From Candidatus Falkowbacteria bacterium (GTDB taxonomy: Bacteria > Patescibacteriota > Patescibacteriia > Patescibacteriales > UBA12075), in contig DOSJ01000022.1 in NCBI GenBank assembly GCA_003514005.1, forward strand, positions 13,804 through 77,803: a DNA stretch of 64,000 nt. The letters are read 5' to 3'. Both the position numbers and the translations under genes were made by a program. Below are positions 43,063 through 62,334 of the stretch, in pieces. The notes below the pieces were generated by a model, which saw only the letters and a list, made by a program, of their open reading frames with translations, made no database searches and had not been told where the DNA came from. The stretch's first letter is position 1; every line of letters begins with the position of its first letter.

Positions 43063-43088
43063 GACTTTTCTCCTTTGTTATTTTCGCG

Positions 43089-44924: not shown

Positions 44925-45060
44925 ATTCTCTCCTTTATTAATTGTTATTCAATTGTTAAAAATTCCCTCCCTTAATAAAAATATCTTACTCTAAAAATAT
45001 TTTTAGTAAAGGCCGGTAAAGAAAGCTGGGTTTAGCTTTCTTTACCGGGGTATTGATAGA

Positions 45061-46644: not shown

Positions 46645-46660
46645 TTTTATGTTCTCCTTT

Positions 46661-47176
46661 TCAACTTGGTTTAACCGCAGAAAATACCAATAAATCATAA
46701 AATTGTTTTGCCAACTTGTAGCGTCCGCGCAAAATGCCGTCACAGTTAAAATCGGACAGGCTTTTGCATACTTCAACCATATACTCATCACACTCTGGTA
46801 CATTTATATAGACTGTGTTTAACTTTAATTCAGCAAATGCTATTTTTAACAAAACATTTATTGCCGATTTTTCAAAAACCATATTTTGAAAAGCCGGAAA
46901 TATCATAATTCCCAATCTGGCATTTTCCATAATAGTATCAATCTCATGAAGTCCGATTGTTCCAATCGCATCACCAGATGTATACTGGCGTATTATAAAC
47001 AGTTTATCGGTTTCACTTTGACACATTTTTTTCAAATATGCTTGTTCAGATTGTAGACCAAATGGCTCTGAGAAAAAAGCAATATTTGCTCCTACTCCAC
47101 CATTTATGCCATCCAGTATTTCTTCTGCATGACAGGCTTCTGCCCTTGATAAAAAAATCCTCCTTTCATCAGACAT
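46661..47176 (-). CDS. GNAT-like acetyltransferase
   Basis: 171 aa with GNAT-like beta/alpha pattern. Confidence 0.35.
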   Translation of the reverse strand: MSDERRIFLSRAEACHAEEILDGINGGVGANIAFFSEPFGLQSEQAYLKKMCQSETDKLFIIRQYTSGDAIGTIGLHEIDTIMENARLGIMIFPAFQNMVFEKSAINVLLKIAFAELKLNTVYINVPECDEYMVEVCKSLSDFNCDGILRGRYKLAKQFYDLLVFSAVKPS

Positions 47177-47206
47177 TTCAAATCCCCCTTCTATTAAATT
47201 GTTATG

Positions 47207-47319
47207 TAAAGATCATCCGGCTTATTTAGTTTTTTAAATAAGCCGAGAAAGCTTTATCCAAATATCTTTTGGGTAAAATTTTCTATTGGGCAGTAGTGAG
47301 TTTTTTCACTACTGCCCAG
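47207..47319. repeat. about 110-bp direct repeat copy 1 (two hairpins)
   Basis: Near-identical to 48715-48816. Contains hairpins CGGCTTATTT-AGTTTTTT-AAATAAGCCG and GGGCAGTAGTGA-GTTTTTT-CACTACTGCCC. Confidence 0.9.
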
Positions 47320-47335
47320 TTTTTTGTTTATTGCT

Positions 47336-48214
47336 CTACGAGAAAAAATTAAAGGCTTTTTTATAAATTTCCTTATGGTGATCGATACCAAACTTAGGAA
47401 CACCTTTCTCAGTATCCCAGACAAAAATATCATCAGCATCACTACCGGCTTGGAACATCTTCTTTAAAAGCTCTTCTGACAATACCCCTTCGTAAGGAAT
47501 AACGGCAGTAATCGCAGTTGTTTCATTAACCCTTTTTTTATTCAGGTGTTTGATTTTTTCATCTTCACCCGTTACAAATTCGCCAAGGGAGAAAAGTTCA
47601 GTATTGATGATCCTACCCCCAAGCTGAATCACAACTCTTTTGTTCATTAAGTTCGGATTGTCCATATCTTCAGTTGTAACTGGCAATATTTTTATCGCCG
47701 CTTCATCCAGTGATTCATGGAGCAAAGCTTCAAACGGTGTCTGAAATTTATAACCAACAACATCACGATGACCGCCGATAAATGCTGGTTTCCCTTTCCC
47801 AGGATCATCTTTGCGGATAATACCGACAAAAAAAGTTTTCAAATTAATATCCTCAAAAAACGGAACAAAATCAACAGTCAGCACCGGCAATGGATACTCG
47901 ATGTTTCCCATTAATGCTATGTAATAATAATCATAATTATCACCTTCTCGGCTTTTAACAACCGATATTACATCTCCATAAGGTCCGAATAGCCCCCAAT
48001 AATTATAATGCGGAGTTATTAATTTTTCCACATACGCTAATTCCGCCTCAGGCGTTCTGTCATCCGATTTTTTGCAATCAATATAATTCATAAAAAAATC
48101 CTCTGGTCTCACACTTATTCTGTCTTTTGCAAGACTCTTTATCTCTTCATTATTATGAACGTGCGTTACAGAGATAATTTTCCCCATTTTTCCAAACACC
48201 AAATAATGAAACAT
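47336..48214 (-). CDS. hypothetical protein with degenerate Nudix-like segment
   Basis: 292-aa ORF. GGHRDVVGYKFQTPFEALLHESLDEAAI loosely resembles a Nudix box. Confidence 0.3.
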   Translation of the reverse strand: MFHYLVFGKMGKIISVTHVHNNEEIKSLAKDRISVRPEDFFMNYIDCKKSDDRTPEAELAYVEKLITPHYNYWGLFGPYGDVISVVKSREGDNYDYYYIALMGNIEYPLPVLTVDFVPFFEDINLKTFFVGIIRKDDPGKGKPAFIGGHRDVVGYKFQTPFEALLHESLDEAAIKILPVTTEDMDNPNLMNKRVVIQLGGRIINTELFSLGEFVTGEDEKIKHLNKKRVNETTAITAVIPYEGVLSEELLKKMFQAGSDADDIFVWDTEKGVPKFGIDHHKEIYKKAFNFFS

Positions 48215-48223
48215 GCTTCCTCC

Positions 48224-48676
48224 TTATCGTTTTTTAGTTAATCTTGATTTTCTCAAAACATCATTAACAATTCGATTATTATTTTTCCAAACCTTTTTTC
48301 GTATCCGCTTCGTCTGCTTTTTACTCTTGCCAAATATACCAAGCTCATTTTCATCCACTATTTTCGGTAATTCATCAATCCTAAATGTCTTCATGATTGG
48401 AAAGATGTCATCCGCAATGCAATTGAATAAATCCAAATCATTCTCTACGTCTCCAAAAACGATACTGCCTGGTCTGAGAACTGGATTAGCACCTGCCCCT
48501 ATTACCAAAATTCCAGAACAATGTCCGATTGAGCTTGTCATCAACTTTTCTTCTTCGCATTTACTTTTGACGAATTCAACAATCCCGCGTATATCGTCTT
48601 CGGTTAATAAAAAATACTGATCCAAAGCGCAATGTTTGTATCGCTCTAAAATTTCATCAACAATCCGATCGTTCAT
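48224..48676 (-). CDS. hypothetical protein with basic C-terminal tail
   Basis: 150-aa ORF, C-terminal KKQTKRIRKKVWKNNNRIV. Confidence 0.3.
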   Translation of the reverse strand: MNDRIVDEILERYKHCALDQYFLLTEDDIRGIVEFVKSKCEEEKLMTSSIGHCSGILVIGAGANPVLRPGSIVFGDVENDLDLFNCIADDIFPIMKTFRIDELPKIVDENELGIFGKSKKQTKRIRKKVWKNNNRIVNDVLRKSRLTKKR

Positions 48677-48714
48677 ATTCGCTCCTTTGTCATTTAGATA
48701 ATTTATTTTAATTT

Positions 48715-48816
48715 AAAGATCGTCCGGCTTATTTAGTTTTTTAAATAAGCCGAGAAAGCTTTATCCAAATTAGCTTTGGGTAAAATTTTCTTTGGGCAGT
48801 AGTGAGTTTTTTTTCA
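48715..48816. repeat. about 110-bp direct repeat copy 2 (two hairpins)
   Basis: Same two hairpins as copy 1. Together the copies bracket the 47336-48676 two-gene unit. Confidence 0.9.
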
Positions 48817-48994
48817 CTACTGCCCGACTATTACTACATGCAGAGTATTACACATTCTTGGTCCGGTATTCCGGAGCTTAAGACTCTATCAAACTGCAAA
48901 TCAAATGTAGAAGAAAAGTTTTCTGAATCAGTTAAAACAAATCTTTTATCTGAATCAACAATCTTCGGTACTATTTCCTCGACAATCTCAATCT

Positions 48995-50755
48995 TTATGC
49001 CACCATTTTTTTTGTGCATAATCGCTCCTTTGGATCAGTTAAATTTAATGATTCTATTTCTTTTTTCATTTCCTTATACACATGTTTTTTTAATTCAAGA
49101 AAAAATTCCAGTGTGTTGAAATGCGGAATATTACTTCCGATATTCCTGTGGCAACGCAAAGGCAGTACATCATCATCTGCTGTAAACCCTAGTCTTTCGT
49201 CAATTAACCGTGCAGACAAATACACTCTGCGTGCCGCCTGAAAAAGCTCCTCTTCGTTTATTTCGCCATATACTTGCTCATACAAACCGGCAATGGCGCC
49301 GAGGCTGGGCTTGGCAAATTTGCAAAGGCCAATCAGATCATACAAGATAATATTGCTACCGCGTTTGCAATTTTCCGCCCATTCTTCCAGACTGTTTTCC
49401 GCGTCCGGATACCACGCACGATTGTAGGTGTCCATGCTCATGTGTAGGCCGGCAACCGCAAAGGCATAACCGGGATTCACATTCCCTAAATAGCCAGGGA
49501 GTTCCAGGCCTTTTACATGCAGGGCATACGAATGGTCATAACCGCTAACCCGCATAACACCTTCACTCAAAGTGTCCTTTCCCTCTCCGATTTTTTTTGC
49601 CAATGAATAAGCATACGCAAAATCGCCGAAACGATTATCTCTTTCCATGGCAAACGCAATCGCGCCGCCAAGTGAAATCGTGTCCATGCCCATCTCATCG
49701 CCAATTGTTATCAACTGCATAATTTGCCGCAGATCAAATATTCCGATATTCGGCCCGAGCAGAGCGCCCGGCTCATAATCAATCTTGCCCAGGATATTTT
49801 CCTTTTCACAAACCTCTTTCCAGCACTTAATCGTACAACCGGTGCAACCCTTGGTTTTTACTGTTAGGCCGTCTTCTGCCACTTTCTCGGAATAAAGCTT
49901 TTCCACTCTTTCCCTATACAAAGGTGTATTGGATTTTGTGAAGTTATCAAACAACCCAAGACCCAATAATGGCAGCCCCTCTATATTCGAAGCAAAAGTT
50001 CCTTTTTCAGTATATTTTTTTGATTTTGGCGAAGCAACAATCTCTTTGTTAATCGCCTTGGCATCAAGCTTGTGCTTCCCTCCTCCACGCTTGACTACAA
50101 TTCCCAGTAAATTTTTACTGCCCAAAACAGCACCAAATCCACCTCGGCCAAGAAAGCGCATATGACCGCTTTTACCTTTGATATCGTCGCTTGTACTAAT
50201 AGCGACATTGGCAAAACGCACTTTGTTTTCTCCGGCTGTTCCGATAACAGCAAACGCCGCGTTTTGATAAATTTCAGACAGAACCCGAATTTTATCTTTT
50301 GTTGTTTTGCCGATTAATCCTTTTGCCGGTAAAATCCTGACACCATCTTCACCTATCTCCAGAAACATCGGCTCGTTCGCCTTGCCTGTGATAAGCAAGG
50401 AATCAATGCCCGTACTTTTTAAATACGGACCAAAATCACCACTGGCTGCGGAATAATAGATTCCGTTACTGCCACTGCGACTGGTTTTTAAGGGACTGAG
50501 TCCGCTTAAAAAAACGCGACGAGCAGATATCACCGAACTTCCGGTAATAAATCCCAGATCAAACGACAGCATACTTCTTGTGTCATAAGCATCGTCCAAA
50601 TCAGAATGATTAAAAAGTTGCTGACCCACAGCATTTATCCCCCTGGAAACACCACCAAGCCTTTCTTCAACTGACGTGTTTTTCAAATCAACATCTGTTC
50701 TTTTAATATTTCCGGAACACAAGTTGATTGCTATGCGCTGATAACCATCCATCAC
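48995..50755 (-). CDS. aldehyde:ferredoxin oxidoreductase family protein
   Basis: About 590 aa, N-terminal AOR_N-like region, Gly-rich GRGGFGAVLGSKNL motif and C-terminal domain typical of tungsten/molybdopterin AORs. Confidence 0.65.
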   Translation of the reverse strand: MMDGYQRIAINLCSGNIKRTDVDLKNTSVEERLGGVSRGINAVGQQLFNHSDLDDAYDTRSMLSFDLGFITGSSVISARRVFLSGLSPLKTSRSGSNGIYYSAASGDFGPYLKSTGIDSLLITGKANEPMFLEIGEDGVRILPAKGLIGKTTKDKIRVLSEIYQNAAFAVIGTAGENKVRFANVAISTSDDIKGKSGHMRFLGRGGFGAVLGSKNLLGIVVKRGGGKHKLDAKAINKEIVASPKSKKYTEKGTFASNIEGLPLLGLGLFDNFTKSNTPLYRERVEKLYSEKVAEDGLTVKTKGCTGCTIKCWKEVCEKENILGKIDYEPGALLGPNIGIFDLRQIMQLITIGDEMGMDTISLGGAIAFAMERDNRFGDFAYAYSLAKKIGEGKDTLSEGVMRVSGYDHSYALHVKGLELPGYLGNVNPGYAFAVAGLHMSMDTYNRAWYPDAENSLEEWAENCKRGSNIILYDLIGLCKFAKPSLGAIAGLYEQVYGEINEEELFQAARRVYLSARLIDERLGFTADDDVLPLRCHRNIGSNIPHFNTLEFFLELKKHVYKEMKKEIESLNLTDPKERLCTKKMVA

Positions 50756-50939
50756 ATTCTCCTTTATAATTTTGTTTTTCTTATATTATTTAAAGATCCA
50801 GACCTCAAACAAAACCGCTTAAGGCCAAAAATTTTTCTCTAAAGTTATTTAGGGAAAAGTTTTTTAAGAAAATACGAGAAAGGTTTAATAGTTTTTTTAT
50901 TAAACCTTTCTCGTTAATATTTTTTTCGATTTTCAATTA

Positions 50940-51698
50940 CTAATACTTAAAACTAAAAACATCTTCTGAGGTTGTAAATTTTGCTCCGGCTTTTGCCATT
51001 CGTGCCAATGCCTTTATGCCAAACCCCATATCCACGTTACCTTCAAAATCAATATTTACCTCCTCAATTGCATCCGTAACAACATATACATCAAAATCAA
51101 GATTATATTTTTTCTTGATTGCCAGCATCGCAAGTACAGCCGCAAGAACGCAATAGTCGGTCGCAAAACCGTAAACAATCATTATTCTAAGACCCTGTTC
51201 AACAAACATCTTGAAAGCCATTTCAAAATTCGGATTTGTCGCAACATCATATGTTTGTTTTTCAAAAATCAATTGCATTCCAGAGTTAATAAACATCTGT
51301 ATTTCTGCCATCGTATAAATCCGTGTGCCAAGCAAGGGACCTTCTTTTGACTTGATATAAATATCTTTTTGAGGTTCAAGAAAATCAAGCCTCAATTGCC
51401 CTTTGGTTCCATTCATTGCATGATCAATAAACGAGCCGCCTTTATTTCTGATCAATTCAGCATCTTCGTAAAAATGCCGATCAACAGAACCAAATATTGA
51501 CCAACCATTTGCCTGAGCAAACTCATGTATACTACAAATTATCGGAAGAACGGCTTCAGCGCCGTAATATCCCGGCTTTTTTACTTTTTGTCCATAAACA
51601 AAAAGTTCACCATTTCTAAATGAAAAACATCCTTGCACATCTGTTTCGTATGCCCCAATATGAAAAATTGCCATTTTTTTTCCTTTCATTTTTGTCAA
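50940..51698 (-). CDS. isochorismatase-family hydrolase (nicotinamidase-like)
   Basis: Catalytic-region pattern MIVYGFATDYCVLAAVLA with conserved Cys. NAD-salvage neighbourhood. Confidence 0.6.
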   Translation of the reverse strand: MTKMKGKKMAIFHIGAYETDVQGCFSFRNGELFVYGQKVKKPGYYGAEAVLPIICSIHEFAQANGWSIFGSVDRHFYEDAELIRNKGGSFIDHAMNGTKGQLRLDFLEPQKDIYIKSKEGPLLGTRIYTMAEIQMFINSGMQLIFEKQTYDVATNPNFEMAFKMFVEQGLRIMIVYGFATDYCVLAAVLAMLAIKKKYNLDFDVYVVTDAIEEVNIDFEGNVDMGFGIKALARMAKAGAKFTTSEDVFSFKY

Positions 51699-51704
51699 AA
51701 CACG

Positions 51705-52331
51705 TTAACTTTTCCACTCATACCCTTTCCACCCATACAATTTATCCCAAACAATAACGCGAGCCACATCCTCGCATACCATATCACAGAAGCTTTCATC
51801 ACCGGCTTTTATCCGTCTCCGAATTTCCGTACTAGAGCCGAATATTCCTTCTAGTGGCAGGTAGACACTACCAAAAGGTAAATCATCAGGTTCATATTCT
51901 TTGCACGGACGTCCGCCGACTAAAAAATGCAATTGATTGTAGTCGGTTTCTTTTCTCGCCCAATGCTTGTGAATATACGAACTTCCTTTTGCGCCGCCGG
52001 CAATAATTTCTGCTCCGACAAAATGAAGAACTTTGCCCTGTTTAGAATATATATCACCCAAAACATGCGTTGGTCGGAAACAATTTTTTTCCAAATCATA
52101 CACATCAATCTCTATAAGGCCGTCTTCTTCCAGCTGTCCGAACGCGCTGTAAACCATTTCAATGCGTTGGTCTAAAGTGGTTCCTTGACTGGGCTTATCC
52201 TTTCTCGGTCCGCAAGGAACTACAATGATCCGCGCGTTGTTAAAACGATTGCAAATCCGCTCAAGTACTTGAACGTGGTGATTCCCCGGCGGATCGAATG
52301 AACCGCCAACTAAAATTATTCCTTGTAACAT
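51705..52331 (-). CDS. NMN/NaMN adenylyltransferase-like cytidylyltransferase
   Basis: N-terminal GGSFDPPGNHH (GxFxPxHxxH) motif. Confidence 0.6.
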   Translation of the reverse strand: MLQGIILVGGSFDPPGNHHVQVLERICNRFNNARIIVVPCGPRKDKPSQGTTLDQRIEMVYSAFGQLEEDGLIEIDVYDLEKNCFRPTHVLGDIYSKQGKVLHFVGAEIIAGGAKGSSYIHKHWARKETDYNQLHFLVGGRPCKEYEPDDLPFGSVYLPLEGIFGSSTEIRRRIKAGDESFCDMVCEDVARVIVWDKLYGWKGYEWKS

Positions 52332-52357
52332 ATCAAACCTCCCTATTCAATTTAATT

Positions 52358-53422
52358 TCACAGTCCAAGACTGTCGCAAAAATCCGAAGCCGTTTTCTCA
52401 ACTTCTTCCCTGTTCCATAATCCATCCAAAAGATATTTGGGAATTATCTTGGTGCCATTGTATGCGCCGAGCAAAGACCCGACCATCGCGCCGTTCGTAT
52501 CCGTATCGCCACCGGCATTTATCGTCTCAAAAAGCGTTTCAATACTGTATGAATTCCGCAAAAACATAGCATAGGTAAAAGGCAACGAATTATATACATA
52601 GCAAGTTGCGCCGTCGGTTGCAGACAATAACTCATCAACGGTCATTTTCATATAAGCATCATCCTGAAAAAGATTTTTAAAGCGCTCACTAAGCTTATCG
52701 ATCATGCCATCGTTTATTAAATAAGCCTCTCCTTTTTCTGCGGCATTTATAACCATTGCAGTAAAATAATTATTCACAGAGCCAAGGTCTAAATATGTAT
52801 CAAAACAAGTAAGAACAGCTCCGACTTGCGCAAAACCGGAGGCAATACCCATGCGCGTACAATGAGTCATTTGAGCGATTTCTGCAATGCAATCTAAATA
52901 TATATCTTCGCGTTTAGAAACAAATTCTTTATACTCACAATATTCCAGACTTTTAGCCGCATTTTCTATTTCTTCTGCGAATACAGCTCCCACCGGTGCG
53001 ATTTTCATGGAGATGCCGTTACCCGCGCCTGTCGGATTACCCATCTCAGAAATATTACAATTCGGATAAACACCTTTAATCCTTTTTAATGATTCAATCG
53101 TGCTTCCACCCCAACCGGCAGTGCTTCGTTCCATTTCTTTGACATGTTCAAGAAAAACATGTTCGATAGTAAATGATTTTTCGATAATATACGCCCGTGC
53201 GATTGCTAAAGTTAATTGCGTGTCATCCGTCCATTGTCCTTTCACAAAACCTTTGCACCATTTATGGTCCGGACGCGCAGGCAGATAGTCCCGGATATAA
53301 CCGAAAGGTTCTTGAATTTCTTTTTTGGTTAATACTTCAACCGGCATACCTAGGGCATCGCCGATTGCTCCCAGCAAAAACATCGCCATAATCTTGTCGC
53401 GCATAATTTCTTTATGCTCCAT
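52358..53422 (-). CDS. ADP-ribosylglycohydrolase family protein
   Basis: N-terminal GAIGDALGMPVE motif and length typical of DraG/ARH-type enzymes. Confidence 0.8.
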   Translation of the reverse strand: MEHKEIMRDKIMAMFLLGAIGDALGMPVEVLTKKEIQEPFGYIRDYLPARPDHKWCKGFVKGQWTDDTQLTLAIARAYIIEKSFTIEHVFLEHVKEMERSTAGWGGSTIESLKRIKGVYPNCNISEMGNPTGAGNGISMKIAPVGAVFAEEIENAAKSLEYCEYKEFVSKREDIYLDCIAEIAQMTHCTRMGIASGFAQVGAVLTCFDTYLDLGSVNNYFTAMVINAAEKGEAYLINDGMIDKLSERFKNLFQDDAYMKMTVDELLSATDGATCYVYNSLPFTYAMFLRNSYSIETLFETINAGGDTDTNGAMVGSLLGAYNGTKIIPKYLLDGLWNREEVEKTASDFCDSLGL

Positions 53423-53710
53423 TGCCTCCTCCTTTTTAGCTTATTGTTTTTATCAAAGATCAATGCCCGAAAAAACTTTTTCAGACAATAATTAATGATA
53501 AAAATCCTTTTAAATTAGCATAATTCTATTATTTTGTCAAGATTGCAATATTTACTTAGTGTATATATAACACTATATTATACTTATTTTATTTTCTTGT
53601 CAAGAAAAAAGAAACTCATTATTATTTTTACTAATATTAAATATTTTTTGTAAATAAAAACTCTATAACCTTTTTTAGGAGGTTATAGAGTTAATGGGGT
53701 TAATTGGTTT

Positions 53711-55807
53711 TTAATTATCCACCGGTTTACATTCATAAAAAATAATTTCATCATCACCACAAATTTCAATATATTGGTAGATGAAAAAATATTTTTTATT
53801 ATTTAAAAGAACAACTGTGTCCCTGGAGTAATGGTCCAAGACATCTGCCTGATTCCCGGTTTGTCGAAGCTGTATTATTAAACACTCGACTGGGTTTAAA
53901 TAACGAAAGATTCGCGTTCTAGCTAATTCTCTTTTATTCTCCACAAGACAAACTCTGACAACTCCTTTAACAAATTCAACAACCGGCTTAGCGTAAGCGT
54001 TTTGCAATTCAGAAAATGACAGTATTTTAAGAACACCGGACGCGGCATACTTCAAAAAAATTTGGTAATCTGAATGTTTTACGGAACTGCGTAAAATCTC
54101 GCCCCAGCTTAAATCTTCGTAACCCTCCCCCTCTTTTCCAAATACGGTTTTTTGATTAAAAACATCTGACTCAGGAAAAATTTTTCTAATACCCGGATTA
54201 CTGGAAGCGATTCCTATGACATCGGACATTCCCGGCATCATTGCAAAATGCATCTTCATTTCATCTGCTGTACGATAAAAAGGTGTAAGAAAAATACTAA
54301 AATGATTCAATGTAAATCCCTTATCAAAGAGCGACTGTGCTACCATTTTTGCTACCAACCATTTTGGAATCGGATCCCTGTCGGTCAAGGTATAGCTTCG
54401 TTGGATTGATATTGCTACATGATAACCGATATTGATTAATCGAGAAATATACTCGATATGACCACGATGCGGAATGCCCATTCTTGCGGGAAATAGCAAT
54501 GAATTAATTTTTTTCTCGCAAACTATTTTTCTTGTTGATGGTTTTGATTTTGTTAATGAGCTATCCGTTTTTAATGTCTGGATAATTTCATAAATTGTCG
54601 GGCGCTCTTTTGGGTTTTTTGCCAACATTCTCGCTATCAACATAATTCGCTTATCACTATTTGCATTTAATTTTTTTTCCTCAAAAGAAAGAGAAACGAT
54701 CGGCCAAAAATATTTTAGTATTTCACTTTCCCGATTATCAGTTTCCTGAATATTCGGATTTACCATAAACGGGTGTTCACCGGTCAACAGTTCATAGAAA
54801 ATCATACCTAATTGAAAGACGTCAGAAGCATAGCTTGCTCTCAGACATCTGCCTTCTTCCGGTGAACCATAACGCGGACTAGCTAAATATACATCAGCTT
54901 TATTCCCATCAGTTATGCGCGATACGCCAAAATCAATCAATTCAATTTCGTCTTCACCACAAATACAATGCTCGGGCTTTAAATCGTGATACAAAATGCA
55001 GGCTTCGTGCATTTCTTTTATTTTCTCTGCAATTTTCAAAATTTGCGCGCTGGCTTCATCAAACGAAACGCAATCGCCTTTGGTTATTTTCTCAGAAAGT
55101 GGTTGTCCAAACTTGTAGGCTGTTTTTAAAAAAATTATCCCCTGGCCAATATCCACCTTGCCATAATACCCATGCGCGTATCCGCGGTCAGATAACTCTT
55201 CATAAATTTCATCTTCATTGTTAAAGAATTTTCCAAGACGACTCTGCTTATAATCAATCATCTCCTTAAATATTTTTACAATTCCATCTGAATCAAACAC
55301 CAGATAAACAAAACTGGAACGACGAATTTCGTTTACACCACTTTGAATTTTTCTTAAAATCTTAATGCCGTTTTTTTTGCAGTATTCACGAAACAAATTA
55401 TCAATATTCGGCTGTAACAATTTTATTTTTCTCTTTGCCAATATGCTTACTTCCCACATATCATATTCAGAAAAAATCAAATCAGAAACATCTTCTTTTT
55501 CTCCAATTTTCATCAACATTTTAACTGCAGGAATGTTTTTATAAAGCTTAACTAGTCGAAATAATTCAATTAAAGCATTGTAATTTTTTGCTTTTTGAAA
55601 ATATTGAATGGCATATATAGCATTTTCAGCATCAAGATTAAAACATGCCATGTGCGCTTCGGCCAACAGATTAAATGCGATATTTTTTTCTTCTTTGGCA
55701 AATTTAATTCTACGAAATGCGTTACGCAAATTAACAAGCGATAATGCGTTTTCAGAGCTTAAAGCTTTGACAATAATTTTTTCCATTGCCACCTTCTTAT
55801 TAATCAT
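53711..55807 (-). CDS. Ser/Thr protein kinase fused to C-terminal NMNAT-like nucleotidyltransferase domain
   Basis: Kinase catalytic loop YHDLKPEH and DFG (LIDFGVS). C-terminal LLFPARMGIPHRGHIEYI...DPIPKW matches the archaeal-type NMNAT/cytidylyltransferase HxGH signature. Confidence 0.65.
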   Translation of the reverse strand: MINKKVAMEKIIVKALSSENALSLVNLRNAFRRIKFAKEEKNIAFNLLAEAHMACFNLDAENAIYAIQYFQKAKNYNALIELFRLVKLYKNIPAVKMLMKIGEKEDVSDLIFSEYDMWEVSILAKRKIKLLQPNIDNLFREYCKKNGIKILRKIQSGVNEIRRSSFVYLVFDSDGIVKIFKEMIDYKQSRLGKFFNNEDEIYEELSDRGYAHGYYGKVDIGQGIIFLKTAYKFGQPLSEKITKGDCVSFDEASAQILKIAEKIKEMHEACILYHDLKPEHCICGEDEIELIDFGVSRITDGNKADVYLASPRYGSPEEGRCLRASYASDVFQLGMIFYELLTGEHPFMVNPNIQETDNRESEILKYFWPIVSLSFEEKKLNANSDKRIMLIARMLAKNPKERPTIYEIIQTLKTDSSLTKSKPSTRKIVCEKKINSLLFPARMGIPHRGHIEYISRLINIGYHVAISIQRSYTLTDRDPIPKWLVAKMVAQSLFDKGFTLNHFSIFLTPFYRTADEMKMHFAMMPGMSDVIGIASSNPGIRKIFPESDVFNQKTVFGKEGEGYEDLSWGEILRSSVKHSDYQIFLKYAASGVLKILSFSELQNAYAKPVVEFVKGVVRVCLVENKRELARTRIFRYLNPVECLIIQLRQTGNQADVLDHYSRDTVVLLNNKKYFFIYQYIEICGDDEIIFYECKPVDN

Positions 55808-55884: not shown

Positions 55885-56943
55885 TCATACGAAGATTTTA
55901 TCCATCATCCGATCTTTTTCTTCTTCAGAAATATCCAAATATTTTGCAAATCGTTTTATAGCTGCACGGGCGTTTATATCTGTATTCTCACCAAAAACCG
56001 GGTCGCTAAGCCATTTTTCATACAGCGAGCTTAAAAATAACTCTACTGCTTGCAGGCCGCGATGTCTGGCAACCAGAAATAAAATAGCATTGGCAACAAT
56101 TCCAAGCCGATGTCTATGTTCTCTGATTCCTGAAAGATCAATAAAATCAAATGCAACCTTATCAGGAGAAAGAAACTGCTTTTGTAATTCACCGACTTTT
56201 GGTAAATCACCGCAACCAACAACTTCAAAGGTTGTAAATGTTTCCATTACCTTTTTCACTGAATCACGCCAATTGCGTTGATTTGGACAACCGTTATCCG
56301 AATCCATTCCCATACCGTGCGCAACAACATCGCTGACAAGGTAAAGATGCTTTTCGGTAACATCTCCAAAATCAATATTACAGACATCCCACAATACACA
56401 TTCAATGGCTTCAGCGGCATCACCACCATCGGCTGGAAAAATATTTTTTACAGTTGAAAAAAGTATTTTATCGCCGGTTTTATCCGGAGAAATAAAATCT
56501 ACAACTTGTGAAATTCTAATTCCATCGCAATGGTCCGAAAAATAATTAAAAGCAAACTGGGATTCGGGATCAATTACATTTAATACCGCTGACAAATAAC
56601 CGGATCCCTCTCTTAAATTCGCGGCAATTGCTTTATTCGAGCCGGAGTTATCAATCAAGATAATATGCACACGCCTTATTCCTTTTGCCGGATGAGTAAA
56701 GCCAAGCTTAACCAGATTTTCATCATAAAGTTCCTCGGTTTTTCTTTCTTCTCTGGCTTTTTTTTCTCCTGTTGTTGCGCGAGCATTCCGAATTCTTTCG
56801 GCATAATCATCATCGGCCTTCTTCCTTGTTCCTTCATCTGAGGAATGCCTTTTTGATGAACTTCTAAAACTACTGCTATAACTTTCATATGTATTTCCCG
56901 ACATCTTCTTGTCTCCTTTTTCTGAAAAAAAATTGAGGGGCAA
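55885..56943 (-). CDS. von Willebrand factor A (TerY-like) domain protein
   Basis: MIDAS DNSGS (DxSxS), Ser-rich low-complexity N-terminus, additional C-terminal helical region. Confidence 0.65.
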   Translation of the reverse strand: MPLNFFSEKGDKKMSGNTYESYSSSFRSSSKRHSSDEGTRKKADDDYAERIRNARATTGEKKAREERKTEELYDENLVKLGFTHPAKGIRRVHIILIDNSGSNKAIAANLREGSGYLSAVLNVIDPESQFAFNYFSDHCDGIRISQVVDFISPDKTGDKILFSTVKNIFPADGGDAAEAIECVLWDVCNIDFGDVTEKHLYLVSDVVAHGMGMDSDNGCPNQRNWRDSVKKVMETFTTFEVVGCGDLPKVGELQKQFLSPDKVAFDFIDLSGIREHRHRLGIVANAILFLVARHRGLQAVELFLSSLYEKWLSDPVFGENTDINARAAIKRFAKYLDISEEEKDRMMDKIFV

Positions 56944-56975
56944 ATTGGTTTTGCCCCTCGAGGTTAAGGTTGATA

Positions 56976-58196
56976 TTAGAACTTTTCGAATTTGTCTTTG
57001 GATCTTACTTTCCCGCTAATGAGCGTATCCCAGGGAATGGATATGCCGAGCTGAAGCATTGCACCAAGGTACGCATATTCGGATTGACCGGAAGAAATAT
57101 TCTGATATTCCATCACGGAAAGAATATATTTTGTCACATTTCTTTCCAGTCTAACATAGTCAGCAGACACGTTTGTTTTCAGCATCTTCAGCATCTGCTC
57201 ACGATTGGCTGCGCCGAGCATACTCGGCAACCTGTCATCGGCAAGAATCTTTTTGATTTCCTGGGCATCATACGCCAGCGCACGGGCAACCGGAATTCCG
57301 GTACCAGCAAAAACGCGATTAATATTGTTAATCACTCCTTCGGCTGCGTCTCTCAAACCGGACGTATCCGGGGGTTGAAGCATACCCGGGGGCATACCAG
57401 AATTTCGACCGGACATCGCCATGGTAAACATCGTTGCCATCATTCCGGGGTTGGATGCACCGGACATCCATTGCTCCTGCCATCCTTTGACCAGGGTATT
57501 GAATGAAGAGATCGATTCCCAAAAACCGGATTCAAGTTTGTTCAGTAATTCGTCTTTCCGCTTTGCACTCATCCTGATCGTTCCTTCAATATCAAGAGCT
57601 TTTAAAATATCAGCATAGGCACGTTTGGAAATAATTTTCTGAATTTCATAATACGCGGGCGGACATGGTTCATCAAGGCCTTCGGCATATTTTTCCATGG
57701 CTTCAATTATTTTATCGGGTAGATCATACAGACCGACACGATTTGCCAAGGCCGCACGTGTTGCGGACATCACTTCGGTTTTTCCGATCTTAAGTTCTCC
57801 ACCCGTTTTTAACAGAACCAAAAAGCTGTCATCATCCGGAATCTGCGGAAGAACATCTGTCGCCACTCCGGTTCCAAAAGTTTCAGTTGGTGCAACAAGT
57901 GCCGAATCATTAATGGCCGGCTTCGGACCACGTAAAAGACTGACATTTTTCTTGAATACTGCACTCGGAATCTTGAGGAGGATGTCCATCTCCGCTTTAA
58001 TTTCTTCATCTGTGGCGGAGGCCGGGTCAGACAAAAGAGCAAGCGCGTCTTCGCTCGGTATGCCAACAACATTTGCAAGCGCGTTTACAATCACTTCTGT
58101 TGTCGCAGCTGTTTTTACAGAAAACTCTGCCATTCTTTTTTCCCATTCAATCTGCCATTCGGGCTTTTCTATTGGTGTTGCTGTTACATCTGCCAT
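56976..58196 (-). CDS. hypothetical protein (Ala/Gly/Met-rich)
   Basis: 406-aa ORF in the same transcription direction inside the kinase/vWA cluster. Confidence 0.3.
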   Translation of the reverse strand: MADVTATPIEKPEWQIEWEKRMAEFSVKTAATTEVIVNALANVVGIPSEDALALLSDPASATDEEIKAEMDILLKIPSAVFKKNVSLLRGPKPAINDSALVAPTETFGTGVATDVLPQIPDDDSFLVLLKTGGELKIGKTEVMSATRAALANRVGLYDLPDKIIEAMEKYAEGLDEPCPPAYYEIQKIISKRAYADILKALDIEGTIRMSAKRKDELLNKLESGFWESISSFNTLVKGWQEQWMSGASNPGMMATMFTMAMSGRNSGMPPGMLQPPDTSGLRDAAEGVINNINRVFAGTGIPVARALAYDAQEIKKILADDRLPSMLGAANREQMLKMLKTNVSADYVRLERNVTKYILSVMEYQNISSGQSEYAYLGAMLQLGISIPWDTLISGKVRSKDKFEKF

Positions 58197-58260
58197 GTTT
58201 TTTCTCCTTTTGTAGGGGTTTTATTTTTCAATGTCCAATTCTCAAAAAAAATCAAGAATC

Positions 58261-58300
58261 AGATTACACTAACTTAATTTTACGATTTTGTCAAGCTACA
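58261..58300 (-). promoter_or_regulatory. putative sigma70-like promoter with extended -35 CTTGACAAAAT
   Basis: Reverse complement reads CTTGACA-17nt-TAGTGT upstream of the 406-aa gene. The same CTTGACAAAAT motif recurs upstream of other minus-strand genes. Confidence 0.35.
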
Positions 58301-59684
58301 TCCAGACCTTGTCTTCATGGGTTGGCCCAAAAGATGCAATGCTGACGGGTATACTTGTTTTTTCTTCAATATAGGCTAAAAAACTTTTTACTTCCTTTTG
58401 TACTTTGCTTATTTTATTTATTTTACCATTTACAGTCCAGCCCTTAAATATTTTCCAGCTTGCTGGTCGGCACTGCTTAAGCAAATTTGCCAATACTTCG
58501 CCCCCCTCCTTTCCGATATGCTTGATTCTTGAAATAAGCACTTTTCCGTTTGTCTTTCTTTCAAAATCAAAATACTTTTCCAGATCATTTCTTTTTTCAC
58601 CGCAATATTCATAGGCAGTAACAATTTTCACCTGATTTAACCCTGATAATCGATCAACGCATGTAATAGCTAATGAATCAATTTTTCCAGATACTTCAAG
58701 CGCATATTTTGTAGTAACAAGATCAAACCAACCGATTCTAAATTTTCCTTGCCATTCATTACTGCTATTGTGCAAATCAGGAATTAAAGACGACAATCTT
58801 TTGTTCTCTGTAACAAACGGGCCATTGCCATGTCTAGTGGCATACGCTCGCAGAATACCTATTATTTTTGCTTGCGACAAACCGATTATTTCTTTTGCGT
58901 TTTGCGGAGTTGTACATGAATAAGTGTTGTATGGTGCAAAACCATATTTTTCATCAAGCAACACTCCCTGCGCTCCTTCAAAAATTACGGGACCTAGCGT
59001 ATCGCGCATAACATCTGCTGTTTTGCGAATATTCAAGCGATGATCAACAAACATTTTTTCATAAGCCGTTGCCAATAACTCAACATAATTTCTGGTGCTT
59101 AACTTATTAAAAATATTTGTAATTTTTTCATCTGCACCGTCAGCGATTAGCGGTTCAGCTTGGTCTATTTTATAGCGCCAAAGATAATCCAGTTTTTTTC
59201 TTAATTCATCGGGATAAAAAATATCCTGCAAAATAATTCCAACACCATTCCGTCCATCACGCACTGCTTCGCCAACACCCAATCCGCAACTGCCATGCCG
59301 ATTTTTTCCACGAGCAATTTCCCGCATCTGATTCATGTGTATTTGAAATGGAGTAATTAGCCGACAATTCGAATCAATGCTCAGCATGGAATATGGATCT
59401 TGAATGCTATTAGTTTCCAATACTTCTGCTTCCACCTCTAGATGCAATAGATTGATCAACATATGCGCGGAAAGGTGTGTATTCGCTCCGGCAAAAATTC
59501 CTGAACCGAATTGAGAACATTTATGATGCCGTCCTCCCGGCTCTACAATATTATGTACTGCTTGATTTGCTCCAGTATAGCGGATAACTGTTTCAGCTTT
59601 ATATTCACGGGCAAGAAAATCAACAATTGATCCCTTGCCCTGATCGCCAAGTCCTAGATCAACTGTAATGATATTCTCTGTCAT
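58296..59684 (-). CDS. adenylosuccinate synthetase (PurA) family paralog
   Basis: N-terminal GDQGKGSIVD (PurA GDEGKGKIVD) and RAYATRHGNGPFVTEN (PurA RAYTTRVGxGPFPTE). The NAGHT region diverges to NQAVHN. Confidence 0.75.
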   Translation of the reverse strand: MTENIITVDLGLGDQGKGSIVDFLAREYKAETVIRYTGANQAVHNIVEPGGRHHKCSQFGSGIFAGANTHLSAHMLINLLHLEVEAEVLETNSIQDPYSMLSIDSNCRLITPFQIHMNQMREIARGKNRHGSCGLGVGEAVRDGRNGVGIILQDIFYPDELRKKLDYLWRYKIDQAEPLIADGADEKITNIFNKLSTRNYVELLATAYEKMFVDHRLNIRKTADVMRDTLGPVIFEGAQGVLLDEKYGFAPYNTYSCTTPQNAKEIIGLSQAKIIGILRAYATRHGNGPFVTENKRLSSLIPDLHNSSNEWQGKFRIGWFDLVTTKYALEVSGKIDSLAITCVDRLSGLNQVKIVTAYEYCGEKRNDLEKYFDFERKTNGKVLISRIKHIGKEGGEVLANLLKQCRPASWKIFKGWTVNGKINKISKVQKEVKSFLAYIEEKTSIPVSIASFGPTHEDKVWM

Positions 59685-59714
59685 TATTCCTCCATTTTAT
59701 TGACTGTTAAACGT

Positions 59715-60626
59715 CTATTCTGTTAGATAGGCTTGGAAAAAATCCATTGCCATTCCAAATGCTTCTTTGTTAGCGCATATTCCATCACTTAGCATAAAAT
59801 TCTTATACCCAAACAATTCCATCAAATACACATCTTCAAGATCTGCCAGGGAAATGGAATCGGAATGCGTTAGTGATTCAAGCAATCTTGAAGCAACAAT
59901 TGCATTCGTGTCAATTTTGATAATTGTTTTTAACGCATCAATAATGTTTTTACTCTTTTGCATTTCAAGAACCAAATCATCTCGAGCCGCTACAATTGAT
60001 ACATCAAATCCATATTCAGCAAAATCAGGACTGCCAATAAAATTAATCCCAGGTAAAGATTCAATTTTAATATGCGCCTTGGCTTTTGGGTCTATATCAT
60101 ATACATCATCGATATCCTGACCGCACTCAACATAAGACAACATGTAATCATGGATTCCTAGTTTACGCGAAGCCTGGATGTACTCTTCATCAAGCCGGGT
60201 TAAATATTTCCCCTTTATTTTCAGATTATTCCCAATAACATTTGCCGCTTGTCCGGCACCTGTCGCATATTGCGGATTTGTTTGAGTAAAAACTTTACTT
60301 CCCTTGATTTCTGCAATGACCAAGGGGTTATTTTCTCCTCGCAACCAAAGCTGTGCCGGTAAATCTACTTCGATTTTACGATTCAGAACAATCGCACCGT
60401 GGAGTGGATTCGACCATCGATTAACGCGCAATTGCCGTCCTTTCAAATCTATATACAGCCTTTTACCATCCATAAGTCTTTGCAGTTGCTCTAGATTTTC
60501 AAAAGGACTGCAGGATGTTTTTCCATGCGACCCGGTATTGAAACGCGCTTCAGCAACCAAAGGATGCTTGGCAACATTATAACAATTTTCATTTACCGGA
60601 GGCGGGATCGTTGCAATAATTTTCAT
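59715..60626 (-). CDS. pyruvate-kinase-like TIM-barrel (PEP/pyruvate-binding) domain protein
   Basis: N-terminal KIIATIPPP resembles PK K(T)KIVCTIGP. IVAARDDLVLEM resembles PK MVARGDLGIE. Only barrel-sized (303 aa). Confidence 0.3.
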   Translation of the reverse strand: MKIIATIPPPVNENCYNVAKHPLVAEARFNTGSHGKTSCSPFENLEQLQRLMDGKRLYIDLKGRQLRVNRWSNPLHGAIVLNRKIEVDLPAQLWLRGENNPLVIAEIKGSKVFTQTNPQYATGAGQAANVIGNNLKIKGKYLTRLDEEYIQASRKLGIHDYMLSYVECGQDIDDVYDIDPKAKAHIKIESLPGINFIGSPDFAEYGFDVSIVAARDDLVLEMQKSKNIIDALKTIIKIDTNAIVASRLLESLTHSDSISLADLEDVYLMELFGYKNFMLSDGICANKEAFGMAMDFFQAYLTE

Positions 60627-60694
60627 GCCAATCTCCTTTTTTTGAAAAAAGGGAGAGGAAATTCTTACCTCCTCTCCCTTCTGAATTTTACCTT

Positions 60695-62176
60695 TTACTT
60701 CTTTTTCTTTTTGGGCAATTTTGCCGCATCCAATTTTACTGCTTTTGACCCGACCAAAGAAAGTCTTTCCAAGGCACCCCTCACTCCTGTGCGTCGAGCA
60801 TCAGACTGTTCACGGCTTTCAAGGTCTTTGTCATATTCATCAATTGTTCGTCGTTCTTCGGTAATTGCAATCGCGCCGAGCATTAGATCGCCAATCGCTT
60901 TAGGTTCTTTTGTAACCAGAATATTTTCTTCGGGCAAAACCGTCCGCCACTGGTCAAGTATCTTGTCGTCATTATAGGCCGCATAAGGATCGGATGGAAT
61001 TTCCACCTGTTTTTTTACCCGCGGATCATAATCAAAGTCAAAGCAAATCACATCACTTTCACGTCCGGTTGTATTTTTCGCTATTGTGCCTTCAAATTGT
61101 TGGTATTCACCATCAATTTCCAGCTCAACTTTAAAAGGAATTTCTCCTCTCTTGGTTTCCGGATCATGGTAGGCAAAATTACGAACAAATACCTGATATC
61201 GGCCTTTCTGCGCTTTGCCTTTTGGCCAACGAGTATTTTCCACAGCTTTCCTGGTTTGGCAACCACCAGCATTGGTATCAACATCCAATTCTCCGCCACA
61301 TCTTGAGCGTTTGCTGCTAAAATATATTTCTTCACCCGCTGGAGTAAACACATGAAGATCTAGGTCGTCACAAGTATCCCACATCAACGATGCCCGCACG
61401 CTAACACCGACAAACATTCCACCTCTTTCTTGCAGACGTTTTCTTATCTCGGCATCAATCCCTTCTTTTCTTTTTTTCGCATCTTTCAGGATGTAGATAA
61501 AGAAAACATGGTACTTTTCCTGAACCTCGGCAAAAATCTTTTCCGAAGGAATATCTTCTTTAACATCAACCCCATAAATCTGCTTGATTTCAGATTTTGT
61601 CACAACAGGATAAAAACCTTCGTCACCAAGAATGAATAAATATCCCTTTTTTCCTCGTGCATTGCAATCAAGATGTGAATAACGCGCATAACCAAACAAT
61701 GCCGTTGCGTATGACTCTACTCCGTTGCCACCACCGCCTTCTTCAATGTTTAATTCCGTCTTTAAATTTCGATCAATTTTGAGGTCTGATTCAAAATCTC
61801 CAATTTGTACAGGAAACCGATCATATTGATAATCACCAACACCGCATATGCTTACTTGTGGATCATCTGCATAATTCCTCATTACTATTTGACCAAACAG
61901 TAATGGTATTTTATCATATGCGTCCAAAACGTCTTCTCCACGTGTTAATGTCAGATCAGACATAATTACAATTGGCGTGATACGATCAGATACTCCTGGC
62001 ACTTCTCGACATTCCCAACCATTGCGCATAGCTTTTTTAGGATCAAGATGTTTACTTATTCGTTTTTCTTTCAAAATCTCTGGCTTAATATCTTTTGAAA
62101 AATTAAAATCACTCCGCGTTGATCTTGAATTTGGAACAACATCCCTATCAAAACCTCTTCCACTTGGTCCGCCCAT
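60695..62176 (-). CDS. vWA-like (DxTxT MIDAS variant) plus TerD-like domain fusion protein
   Basis: Central IVIMSDLTLTRGED MIDAS-like motif. C-terminal LMWDTCDDLDLHVF...EIYFSS...GGELDVDTNAGG parallels the TerD LGWD...DFDLDASAFLL...FIFYNN...GDNRTGEGDGDDE calcium-binding signature. Confidence 0.45.
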   Translation of the reverse strand: MGGPSGRGFDRDVVPNSRSTRSDFNFSKDIKPEILKEKRISKHLDPKKAMRNGWECREVPGVSDRITPIVIMSDLTLTRGEDVLDAYDKIPLLFGQIVMRNYADDPQVSICGVGDYQYDRFPVQIGDFESDLKIDRNLKTELNIEEGGGGNGVESYATALFGYARYSHLDCNARGKKGYLFILGDEGFYPVVTKSEIKQIYGVDVKEDIPSEKIFAEVQEKYHVFFIYILKDAKKRKEGIDAEIRKRLQERGGMFVGVSVRASLMWDTCDDLDLHVFTPAGEEIYFSSKRSRCGGELDVDTNAGGCQTRKAVENTRWPKGKAQKGRYQVFVRNFAYHDPETKRGEIPFKVELEIDGEYQQFEGTIAKNTTGRESDVICFDFDYDPRVKKQVEIPSDPYAAYNDDKILDQWRTVLPEENILVTKEPKAIGDLMLGAIAITEERRTIDEYDKDLESREQSDARRTGVRGALERLSLVGSKAVKLDAAKLPKKKKK

Positions 62177-62178
62177 AA

Positions 62179-62295
62179 TTATTCTCCTTCCTCTTTTTTA
62201 ATTTCCTGGTTTAATTCTTTTGTCACTTCTTCCGTTAATATTTCAATTAATGTTTCAATTACATCTCTTGAATACTCATCTGGTGGTTGGCCCAT
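62179..62295 (-). CDS. small acidic ORF (38 aa) translationally coupled to the vWA-TerD gene
   Basis: MGQPPDEYSRDVIETLIEILTEEVTKELNQEIKKEEGE. Its GGAGAATAATTATG end supplies the RBS and overlapping start of the downstream gene. Confidence 0.25.
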   Translation of the reverse strand: MGQPPDEYSRDVIETLIEILTEEVTKELNQEIKKEEGE

Positions 62296-62334
62296 AACAC
62301 ACTCCTTTGTTTATATAATTTCTTTATATCAGCG

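Follow-up and report, generated by a model that had tools for sequence, protein, structure and literature searches.

Architecture and distribution of the fusion protein

The DNA analysed here, referred to as the window, is a stretch of 64,000 nucleotides from contig DOSJ01000022.1 of a Candidatus Falkowbacteria bacterium (assembly GCA_003514005.1). The gene at 53711..55807 on the minus strand is a single open reading frame (ORF), with its stop codon at 53711-53713, and encodes a fusion protein of 698 amino acids (aa). The order of its parts is a variable N-terminus, a Hanks-type Ser/Thr kinase, a NadM-type HxGH nucleotidyltransferase and a small beta-rich tail, the latter being a degenerate Nudix domain. 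An earlier note, made from the letters of this DNA, had described the protein as a Ser/Thr kinase fused to a domain that resembles nicotinamide mononucleotide (NMN) adenylyltransferase (NMNAT).

In NCBI and UniRef the exact 698-aa protein is named solely 'Serine/threonine protein kinase'. A word-indexed search finds about 69 full-length homologues with 34-48% identity, all called kinase or unnamed, and none of them has a Pfam domain on the C-terminal part. In an exhaustive profile search, the C-terminal 270 aa were compared with 1.84 billion representative proteins, which gave 130 matches. In about 100 of these the domain is located at the C-terminus of a protein of 500-790 aa, annotated as 'protein kinase' only. 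As this is the sole annotation of the members, the link of the fusion to nicotinamide adenine dinucleotide (NAD) is invisible in the databases. The search for other kinase-NMNAT fusions that the earlier note had proposed has thus led to about 100 representatives, and 31 non-redundant loci, designated below by L and a number, were compared.

The fusion is present in 23 species-representative genomes, essentially all of them Patescibacteria, and the hosts of the family are bacteria of the candidate phyla radiation (CPR) and phage-like contigs. Since the 69 homologues and the 100 representatives carry the same architecture in independent assemblies, the fusion is not an assembly artefact. Judged from these sequences, the kinase-NadM fusion is a genuine and conserved family.

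Residue conservation was counted over 62 aligned family members, using the numbering of the window copy. The mean identity to the window copy is 56% for the nucleotidyltransferase, 35% for the kinase, 29% for the Nudix remnant and 26% for the N-terminus. The numbers of invariant columns follow the same order, with 16 of 174, 7 of 270, 0 of 90 and 0 of 145. The nucleotidyltransferase is therefore the best-conserved domain of the fusion.

The nucleotidyltransferase domain is related to NadM

The NadM-type adenylyltransferase domain of the HIGH superfamily was delimited to aa 435-608 (53984..54505, minus strand) using AlphaFold2/Foldseek and hhalign. The AlphaFold2 model of aa 428-698 has a pLDDT of 90.9 and a pTM of 0.90. 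The best Foldseek matches are the NadM-Nudix structures 2qjo and 2qjt from Synechocystis and Francisella (E ~4e-8), and the NMNATs of M. thermoautotrophicum and M. jannaschii are also found at the top. The structures in this NadM set superpose with TM-scores of 0.77-0.82 and a root mean square deviation of 2.5-3.7 Å. All structures at ranks 1-19 are NadM or NadM-Nudix, while phosphopantetheine adenylyltransferase (PPAT) appears from rank 20 only, with TM-scores of 0.56-0.59. Both ATP sulfurylase and PPAT score much poorer than NadM.

When the C-terminal domain was compared with the PDB sequences, neither the single sequence nor a profile of 29 sequences gave anything meaningful. The link to NadM was therefore made by the fold search together with an intermediate outgroup. 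The outgroup proteins, the weakest matches of the exhaustive search (library-wide E 2e-19 to 1e-5), are about 365 aa long and carry CTP_transf_like and NUDIX domains; their best NCBIfam models are the archaeal NMNAT and the bifunctional NMNAT/ADP-ribose pyrophosphatase. An hhalign comparison of the fusion domain with eight of these NadM-Nudix-like proteins gives a probability of 99.8% and an E-value of 9e-30 over 249 columns. The same eight proteins match the solved NadM structures 2qjt, 1ej2, 1f9a and 2qjo with E-values from 7e-21 to 8e-16. Through this outgroup, the alignments provide indirect but strong support for homology between the fusion domain and bona fide NadM.

The outgroup-to-structure alignments also supplied the M. 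thermoautotrophicum numbering of the fusion residues. The translated segment FPARMGIPHRGH (54458-54493, minus strand) includes the HRGH motif, and here R442, H447 and H450 (R11, H16 and H19 in M. thermoautotrophicum) are each invariant in 62/62 members; G449 is Gly in 61. D478-P479 (D48-P49) is invariant in all 62, N537 (N105) is retained in 61 and R477 (R47) is Arg in 43. The second motif, of the ISxxxxR type, is translated as SWGEILR, i.e., S567-W-G569-E-I-L-R573 (54089-54109, minus strand). Both G569 and R573 (R136) are invariant in 62/62, and the R573 column stays invariant when the NadM-like outgroup is included. The PDB contains mutant structures of R11, H19 and R136 of M. thermoautotrophicum, which mark these as studied catalytic residues.

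The earlier note had considered that the HxGH and ISxxxxR-type motifs might be lacking in an alignment, or that the domain might be a non-catalytic Rossmann remnant. We see neither: H447, H450 and R573 are found in every member, and the most conserved domain of the protein has the full catalytic set. By predicted fold and profile alignment, the C-terminal domain is an HxGH nucleotidyltransferase of the NadM (archaeal-type NMNAT) lineage, which sharpens the NMNAT-like assignment that the note had based on HRGH. Kinship to the NadD-like and CoaD-like proteins of the window was also tried and rejected, as hhalign gives only local motif matches with low probability.

A degenerate Nudix domain follows the nucleotidyltransferase

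The last 90 residues, aa 609-698 (53714..53983, minus strand), are assigned by hhalign and the AlphaFold2 model to a degenerate, shortened Nudix domain, which the earlier note had missed. The hhalign alignment extends beyond the nucleotidyltransferase over 'FVPG', the Nudix-box helix and the strands behind it, and a MAFFT alignment agrees with this. In the model the remnant has the order beta-beta-alpha-beta4. About 20 residues before the box as well as the C-terminal half of the fold are absent. A perfect Nudix box (GX5EX7REUXEEXGU) is found in three of the eight outgroup proteins; across the 62 fusion members there is no conserved Glu at the positions equivalent to REUxEE (aa 645-649).

Based on the alignments and the model, we conclude that a complete NadM-Nudix enzyme (NMN adenylyltransferase/ADP-ribose pyrophosphatase) was the source of the C-terminal 270 aa. 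The Nudix half has decayed to a non-catalytic appendage, and the adenylyltransferase half has kept the complete catalytic set. The conservation of the nucleotidyltransferase, set against an eroded Nudix remnant that has lost its glutamates, argues for maintained catalysis rather than for general conservation. The nucleotidyltransferase of the fusion is thus presumably catalytically active.

The kinase domain and the N-terminal region

The kinase domain comprises aa ~146-415 (54563..55372, minus strand) and was recognised by Pfam Pkinase and PADLOC kinase models. A Pfam search with the 698-aa fusion yields the protein kinase only, at aa 227-410 (E 3.6e-27, 95.9 bits against a cut-off of 31.7). 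This match spans positions 75-259 of the 263 in the profile and includes the C-lobe subdomains, and the PADLOC models match from aa 177. The translated catalytic loop YHDLKPEH (54968-54991) and the DFG motif (54926-54934), both on the minus strand, are present as the earlier note had said when it assigned a Hanks-type kinase. The beta3 Lys K181, the alphaC Glu E198, the catalytic Asp D275 and the DFG Asp D292 are invariant in 62/62 members. The family also conserves P316-E317 of the APE motif and R402, the Arg of subdomain XI. The C-lobe is what sets protein kinases apart from small-molecule kinases of the same fold. On these features, the fusion kinase is classified as a protein kinase of the Hanks type with a typical C-lobe.

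Upstream of the kinase, the variable N-terminal region (aa 1-145; 55373..55807, minus strand) has no Pfam or NCBIfam match and belongs to no recognised family. It is missing in 14 of the 62 members and is the least conserved part of the protein apart from the short interdomain linker. The earlier note had set off an N-terminal part of about 240 aa. A non-kinase N-terminus does exist; however, it extends over about 145 aa, and the kinase starts at about aa 146 and not at 240.

A vWA protein is the obligate partner of the fusion

The gene directly upstream encodes a vWA-domain protein of 339 aa (55885..56904, minus strand) with an intact metal ion-dependent adhesion site (MIDAS), D98xS100xS102. 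The assignment comes from AlphaFold2, Foldseek and conservation: the model has a pLDDT of 89.7, the top-50 Foldseek matches in the PDB are all vWA domains, and D98, S100, S102 and M14 are invariant in 40 sequences. Pfam vWA gives only weak and scattered matches on the partner family. The ORF as listed (55885-56943, minus strand) has a TTG start and 352 aa. The true start is probably M14 (56904), because M14 is invariant, because a database entry with 100% identity has 339 aa, and because codons 1-13 of the listed ORF overlap a terminator-like hairpin. The family of the partner has about 128 members, occurs in CPR only and is annotated 'hypothetical'.

A vWA gene of 339-352 aa is found directly upstream of the fusion and on the same strand in 28/28 loci that have upstream DNA. 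The vWA protein is the obligate and sole universal partner of the fusion, a relation that the earlier note, which had listed vWA as part of a neighbouring cluster, did not contain. In L030 the stop codon of the vWA gene overlaps the start codon of the fusion.

The pair is flanked by two terminator-like hairpins on the minus strand, both identified by consensus match only. One (53659..53692, a 13-bp stem and a T-run) lies 19 nt past the stop codon of the fusion. The other (56935..56959, a 10-bp stem with 6 GC pairs and a T-run) lies between the vWA gene and the next gene upstream, which encodes a protein of 406 aa. A promoter-like TTGACA-17-TAATAT (53603-53575, minus strand), also a consensus match only, is placed past the first hairpin and before a gene for an ADP-ribosylglycohydrolase (ARH). 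The flanking hairpins suggest that vWA and fusion form a bicistronic unit of their own.

The 406-aa protein and the PurA-like module

The 406-aa protein (56976..58196, minus strand), the neighbour of the vWA-fusion pair, belongs to no recognised family and has no match in the PDB sequences, Pfam or PHROGs. More than 254 homologues were found, all 'hypothetical' and without a Pfam domain, and their taxonomic range is broader than that of the fusion. The gene adjoins the pair in 21/31 loci. It is located upstream in the long-form CPR loci and directly downstream in the short-form loci, where the fusion lacks the N-terminal region (see below).

Further upstream is a group of genes that we refer to as module A: a pseudokinase, a 493-aa protein, a minimal pyruvate-kinase barrel and a divergent PurA-like protein. 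Module A is found in 7-12 of the 31 loci. Together with the 406-aa gene it makes a five-gene block, at 56976-63516 (minus strand) in the window and also in L001, L010, L012, L013, L014, L029, L034 and L035. This five-gene module seems to be undescribed. In Schekmanbacteria-like contigs the 406-aa gene occurs with the whole kinase/unknown/PurA-like block and without the vWA-fusion pair, and in Omnitrophota contigs it stands beside PurA-like genes, again without the pair. As the block exists without the pair, the PurA-like cluster is an independent module that is often beside the pair and does not define its context. The earlier note had spoken of an adjacent PurA-like/vWA/TerD cluster. Of this, the vWA gene stands as the obligate partner, the PurA-like part is separable, and TerD is undetected: with Pfam at the thresholds used, it matches none of the neighbours, nor the 406-aa and 493-aa proteins or their homologues.

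The pseudokinase (62335-63516, minus strand) matches the phage family phrog_3043 'kinase' with an E-value of 6e-21. It is a conserved pseudokinase, since the catalytic Asp is absent in 8/8 orthologues, in which HRD is replaced by HRN, KRN, HNN (twice), HCN, HGN and HGG (twice). The two halves of the 493-aa protein (60695-62176, minus strand) match the phage families phrog_2971 (E 9e-39) and phrog_1735 (E 9e-30), and the protein has no Pfam or PDB match. Its N-terminal half contains the MIDAS-like motifs DLTLT, GGGG and GDEG. The idea of a second vWA protein paralogous to the partner of the fusion finds no statistical support (hhalign probability 0.2%), and the resemblance is an impression at the motif level only.

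A 303-aa protein (59715-60626, minus strand) is a true, though minimal, homologue of the pyruvate kinase A-domain barrel. It aligns to the barrel part only of solved pyruvate kinases, with an E-value of 9e-14, and its gene is always next to the PurA-like gene. The PurA-like protein itself (58296-59684, minus strand) scores 210 bits, well short of the 402 bits that NCBIfam requires for PurA, and its C-terminal quarter finds no match there. With the phage adenylosuccinate-synthetase-like family phrog_1211 the protein aligns over the full length (E 3e-72). This protein is probably not the housekeeping PurA.

NAD-related genes and phage-like contigs

Directly upstream of the pseudokinase, a truncated ORF (63689-63997, minus strand) is cut by the end of the window. 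It resembles NrtR, a NAD regulator with a Nudix and a winged-helix domain, and matches the NrtR of L029 with a tblastn E-value of 8e-30. A promoter-like site (63599-63570) is located between this ORF and the pseudokinase. NrtR-like genes flank module A in five loci, i.e., the window, L001, L019, L025 and L029.

The region downstream of the fusion (42145-53422, minus strand) is a dense run of NAD-related genes. It includes an ADP-ribosylglycohydrolase, a NadD-like nucleotidyltransferase, an isochorismatase/PncA-like protein, a NAD kinase, a NAD synthetase and a 580-aa protein with a weak NAMPT/NAPRT-like match, and is interrupted by an aldehyde:ferredoxin oxidoreductase and a GNAT protein. In both the window and L003 the ARH gene is just downstream of the fusion. 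NadD-like genes are found in the window, L001, L010, L012 and L013, PRK-like kinases in the four loci L010, L012, L013 and L029, and NadE, PncA and PncB genes in several loci.

Outside this run, the 343-aa protein at 39912-40943 (minus strand) has a CoaD (PPAT)-like cytidylyltransferase domain and a P-loop domain. It may be a fused enzyme of the PPAT/dephospho-CoA-kinase type, and L032 has a similar CTP_transf_like+CoaE gene. A 'NadR-like' assignment of this ORF was rejected, as NCBIfam gives the CoaD (PPAT)-like domain plus the P-loop domain.

Short forms of the fusion, with 520-674 aa and without the N-terminal region, occur in L028, L031, L032 and the P0047 contig, on contigs of 66-589 kb. 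Their surroundings contain HNH, LAGLIDADG and GIY-YIG homing endonucleases, Mom-like and T4 rIIB-like genes, an MVP-shoulder protein and many small ORFs. L032 has NadE, PncB and a T4 rIIB-like gene beside the pair, and no NadD-type gene among its called genes. L030, a 416-kb IMG/VR contig, has a WGR-PARP_reg-PARP gene about 4-5 kb upstream of a short-form pair. The protein encoded there (L030 2939-4387) is complete; a eukaryotic-type topoisomerase IB is also found a few kb upstream of the pair, and the GC content is about 30%. By IMG/VR classification and the flavour of their genes, the short-form contigs may be huge phages.

A possible mechanism and its alternatives

We suggest that a TerY-P-like vWA/kinase switch is coupled to active adenylyl transfer of the NadM type, with NAD, nicotinic acid adenine dinucleotide (NaAD) or a close analogue as the product. 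We hold this proposal tentatively, at somewhat under even confidence. A signalling kinase would have captured a whole NadM-Nudix enzyme at its C-terminus, after which the adenylyltransferase half would have been kept catalytically intact and the Nudix half would have become a small non-catalytic appendage. The fusion would work as a two-gene unit with the upstream vWA (MIDAS) protein, in the manner of TerY-P. Here, the vWA partner and the kinase would be the sensing and switching part and the NadM domain the enzymatic part. The NadM domain would move AMP from ATP to a mononucleotide phosphate, most likely NMN or nicotinic acid mononucleotide (NaMN), giving NAD or NaAD. The synthesis of a NAD-type dinucleotide and phosphorylation signalling could then control each other. 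The direction of control between kinase and nucleotidyltransferase, as well as the role of the vWA protein, is something we infer. The setting would be CPR cells and phage-like elements, where the turnover of NAD and ADP-ribose is at stake.

NAD is a central battlefield of bacteria, phages and parasites, and the known NAD-restoring devices are plain metabolic enzymes. If the proposal is true, this would be the first NadM-type adenylyltransferase with a direct connection to a Hanks kinase and a vWA metal-site protein, i.e., a regulated, signal-coupled module for NAD-type synthesis or sensing. The family is found in CPR bacteria, which themselves depend on hosts for nucleotides, and on huge-phage-like contigs beside genes for PARP, ARH, NrtR and NAD salvage. 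The expressible two-gene unit would also be an entry point to how TerY-P-like vWA-kinase switches talk to an enzymatic output.

Several observations weigh against this proposal. No curated NMNAT cut-off (NCBIfam PRK01153/TIGR01527) is reached: the best NCBIfam model, PRK01153, matches aa 438-553 with an E-value of 0.063 and 12.9 bits against 127, and Pfam CTP_transf_like is undetected on the fusion at E<=1. A D...W element is present in the NMNAT of M. thermoautotrophicum (D80/W87) and in that of F. tularensis, and was pattern-matched in three of the eight outgroup proteins. From the structure work on the M. thermoautotrophicum NMNAT-NAD complex, we take D80 and W87 to lie at the site that binds nicotinamide/NMN. 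The fusion family has F/Y/L510 in the place of D80 and M/L/H/T at aa 517 in that of W87, and a conserved, family-specific motif, TPFYxT...HF, stands in place of the element. Because of this replacement the acceptor substrate is uncertain and may not be NMN. The term 'NMNAT-like' is valid for fold, ancestry and phosphotransfer chemistry, with NMN as the presumed acceptor.

Other points concern the kinase and the genomic context. Position 280 of the catalytic loop is Asn in 57/62 members and His in 5/62, the window copy among the latter. The Gly-rich loop is degenerate, with the consensus LQxG....S.VY and a single Gly (42/62), and does not follow GxGxxG. No PP2C gene is found among the neighbours in the window, nor in L001, L003, L028, L031 and L033; PP2C_2 is confined to the edge of L029 and to the opposite strand of L032, about 7 kb off. 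Since a PP2C does not accompany the pair consistently, reversibility of the switch is at best putative. NAD genes adjoin the pair in a minority of loci only, so that the theme is recurrent and not universal. The window also encodes a NadD-like enzyme elsewhere, which would make a housekeeping NMNAT role of the fusion redundant here.

Alternatively, the NadM(-Nudix) module could act as a sensor, bind ATP, NAD, NMN or ADP-ribose and switch the kinase without being synthetic any longer, the output being phosphorylation of the vWA partner or the 406-aa protein. NrtR would be the parallel, as the Nudix half of the fusion is non-catalytic yet kept in all members, like in NrtR-type sensors. Further, the pairing of kinase and vWA is the universal feature, the C-terminal domains of TerY-P-like kinases are thought to bind ligands (PMC10542128), and the D...W element is altered. 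However, the residues known to be needed for NadM catalysis are all kept in 62/62 members, and the nucleotidyltransferase is the most constrained domain, while the Nudix remnant, i.e., the putative sensor, is without any invariant column. Ligand binding alone rarely keeps an entire catalytic constellation across 34-48% identity, and we therefore regard a pure sensor as unlikely. The motif TPFYxT...HF, conserved in the place of D...W, could instead indicate that the nucleotidyltransferase passes AMP to some phosphorylated small molecule that is neither NMN nor NaMN, forming an unusual dinucleotide or signal. Candidates are a nucleotide from the PurA-like/mini-pyruvate-kinase module, which is close to the earlier note's idea of a nucleotide made in the adjacent cluster, or a riboside phosphate from a PRK-like kinase. 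The divergence of the PurA-like protein, the presence of module A with the pair in 7-12 of the 31 loci and the PRK-like kinases in four loci are in line with this. The chemistry is, however, not deducible from sequence, and the two modules of the window have a terminator-like hairpin between them. Nor can the nucleotidyltransferase generally depend on module A, because most loci that carry the pair lack this module, and other phyla have the module but not the pair. A different acceptor thus appears quite unlikely to us.

The phage-like contigs raise another possibility, which overlaps the switch-coupled synthesis that we prefer. The pair could be a mobile device of huge phages and epibiotic CPR that restores or guards NAD, where the vWA/kinase part confines NadM activity to the time of an attack, in analogy with phage NARP2 and NARP3. 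The 416-kb IMG/VR viral contig and further large contigs carry short forms in the vicinity of rIIB, Mom, homing endonucleases, PARP, NadE and PncB, and both the reconstitution of NAD by phages through NMNAT pathways and phage NadM/NadV salvage are documented. On the other hand, no PHROG family matches the nucleotidyltransferase domain, the vWA partner or the 406-aa protein, and BFVD contains no close relative. The viral status of the large contigs comes from IMG/VR classification and gene flavour only, and most members reside in ordinary CPR chromosomal contexts. Counter-defence is accordingly given a low probability. Finally, the two catalytic domains might modify one protein in succession: a Ser/Thr of the vWA or 406-aa protein would be phosphorylated by the kinase, and the NadM-derived domain, which is without the D...W element but has all residues required for activating the alpha-phosphate of ATP, would add AMP to this phosphate to give a protein-linked ADP. 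A phospho-amino acid would be a chemically legitimate acceptor, since all HIGH-family transferases use a phosphate oxygen as the nucleophile. To our knowledge, a pyrophosphate-linked adenylylation of protein is a post-translational modification without known precedent, and we find this last scheme very improbable.

Comparison with known systems

Full-text searches of the literature found no description of the Hanks-kinase-NadM fusion or of its vWA partner. The nearest published concepts are NadM-Nudix, NadR/NARP3, TerY-P and the ARG/NrtR/vWA systems (Iyer et al. 2022). The ARG-centred anti-ADP-ribosylation system has NrtR-like transcription factors, vWA and ARH in common with the loci described here; it was rejected as the same system, as it is without a kinase-NadM component (Iyer et al. 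2022).

Phage salvage by NadM/NadV has been described (PMC9503650), and passages in two reports present phage NAD reconstitution via NMNAT-containing pathways as established (bioRxiv 10.1101/2024.02.11.579819; PMC13464706). NadR and the phage NARP3 enzyme Bas30_86 consist of an NMNAT fused to a P-loop nicotinamide riboside kinase (PMC13464706). As in the fusion, a 'kinase' and an HxGH adenylyltransferase of the NMNAT type are on one polypeptide, in a setting of NAD salvage. However, the P-loop kinase of NadR is a small-molecule kinase that makes the substrate of the NMNAT, while the kinase of the fusion is of the Hanks type with an APE motif and a C-lobe. The nucleotidyltransferase of the fusion also comes from the NadM and not from the NadR lineage. 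NARP3 was thus rejected as the same fusion, being NadR-like.

In NrtR, a catalytically dead Nudix domain senses ADP-ribose (PMC9503650), which is a precedent for a Nudix domain that has lost catalysis and is kept as a ligand-binding module. In contrast to the fusion, NrtR is a DNA-binding repressor without kinase or nucleotidyltransferase, and the Nudix remnant of the fusion is far shorter and poorly conserved.

According to a passage in PMC10542128 (citing Anantharaman 2012 and Gao 2020), the TerY-P triad consists of the TerY vWA protein, a PP2C phosphatase and a Ser/Thr kinase whose C-terminus carries a zinc ribbon or OB fold. In TerY-P-like kinases, the same source has this C-terminal domain as a presumed ligand binder (PMC10542128). 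The likeness to our system is the tight coupling of a vWA/MIDAS gene to a Ser/Thr kinase with an additional C-terminal domain, seen in 28/28 loci. However, the C-terminal domain of the fusion kinase is of an enzymatic kind (NadM-Nudix) and not a zinc ribbon or OB fold. The vWA partner belongs to an orphan family restricted to CPR with extra helical extensions, and no PADLOC model matches it.

The archaeal NMNATs (MTH150, PDB 1ej2/1hyb/4yp5, and MJ0541, PDB 1f9a) share the Rossmann-type fold with the fusion domain at 17-18% identity, and R11, H16, H19 and R136 have invariant counterparts in the fusion. Unlike the fusion domain, they stand alone as proteins of about 170 aa. The family-specific motifs QRSYTxT, TPFY...HF and SWG and an altered D80/W87 region also set the fusion domain apart.

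NadM-Nudix is alike in the order of nucleotidyltransferase and Nudix, in giving the best Foldseek matches and in the profile alignment, which extends over both halves. The adenylyltransferase-site residues R, HxGH, DP, N and R are common to both. In the fusion, however, the unit sits C-terminal to a Hanks kinase, its Nudix domain is shortened and without the REUxEE glutamates, the D...W element is replaced, and the scores are far under the curated cut-offs. The fusion family illustrates how a bifunctional NadM-Nudix enzyme was captured as a whole and then remodelled asymmetrically.

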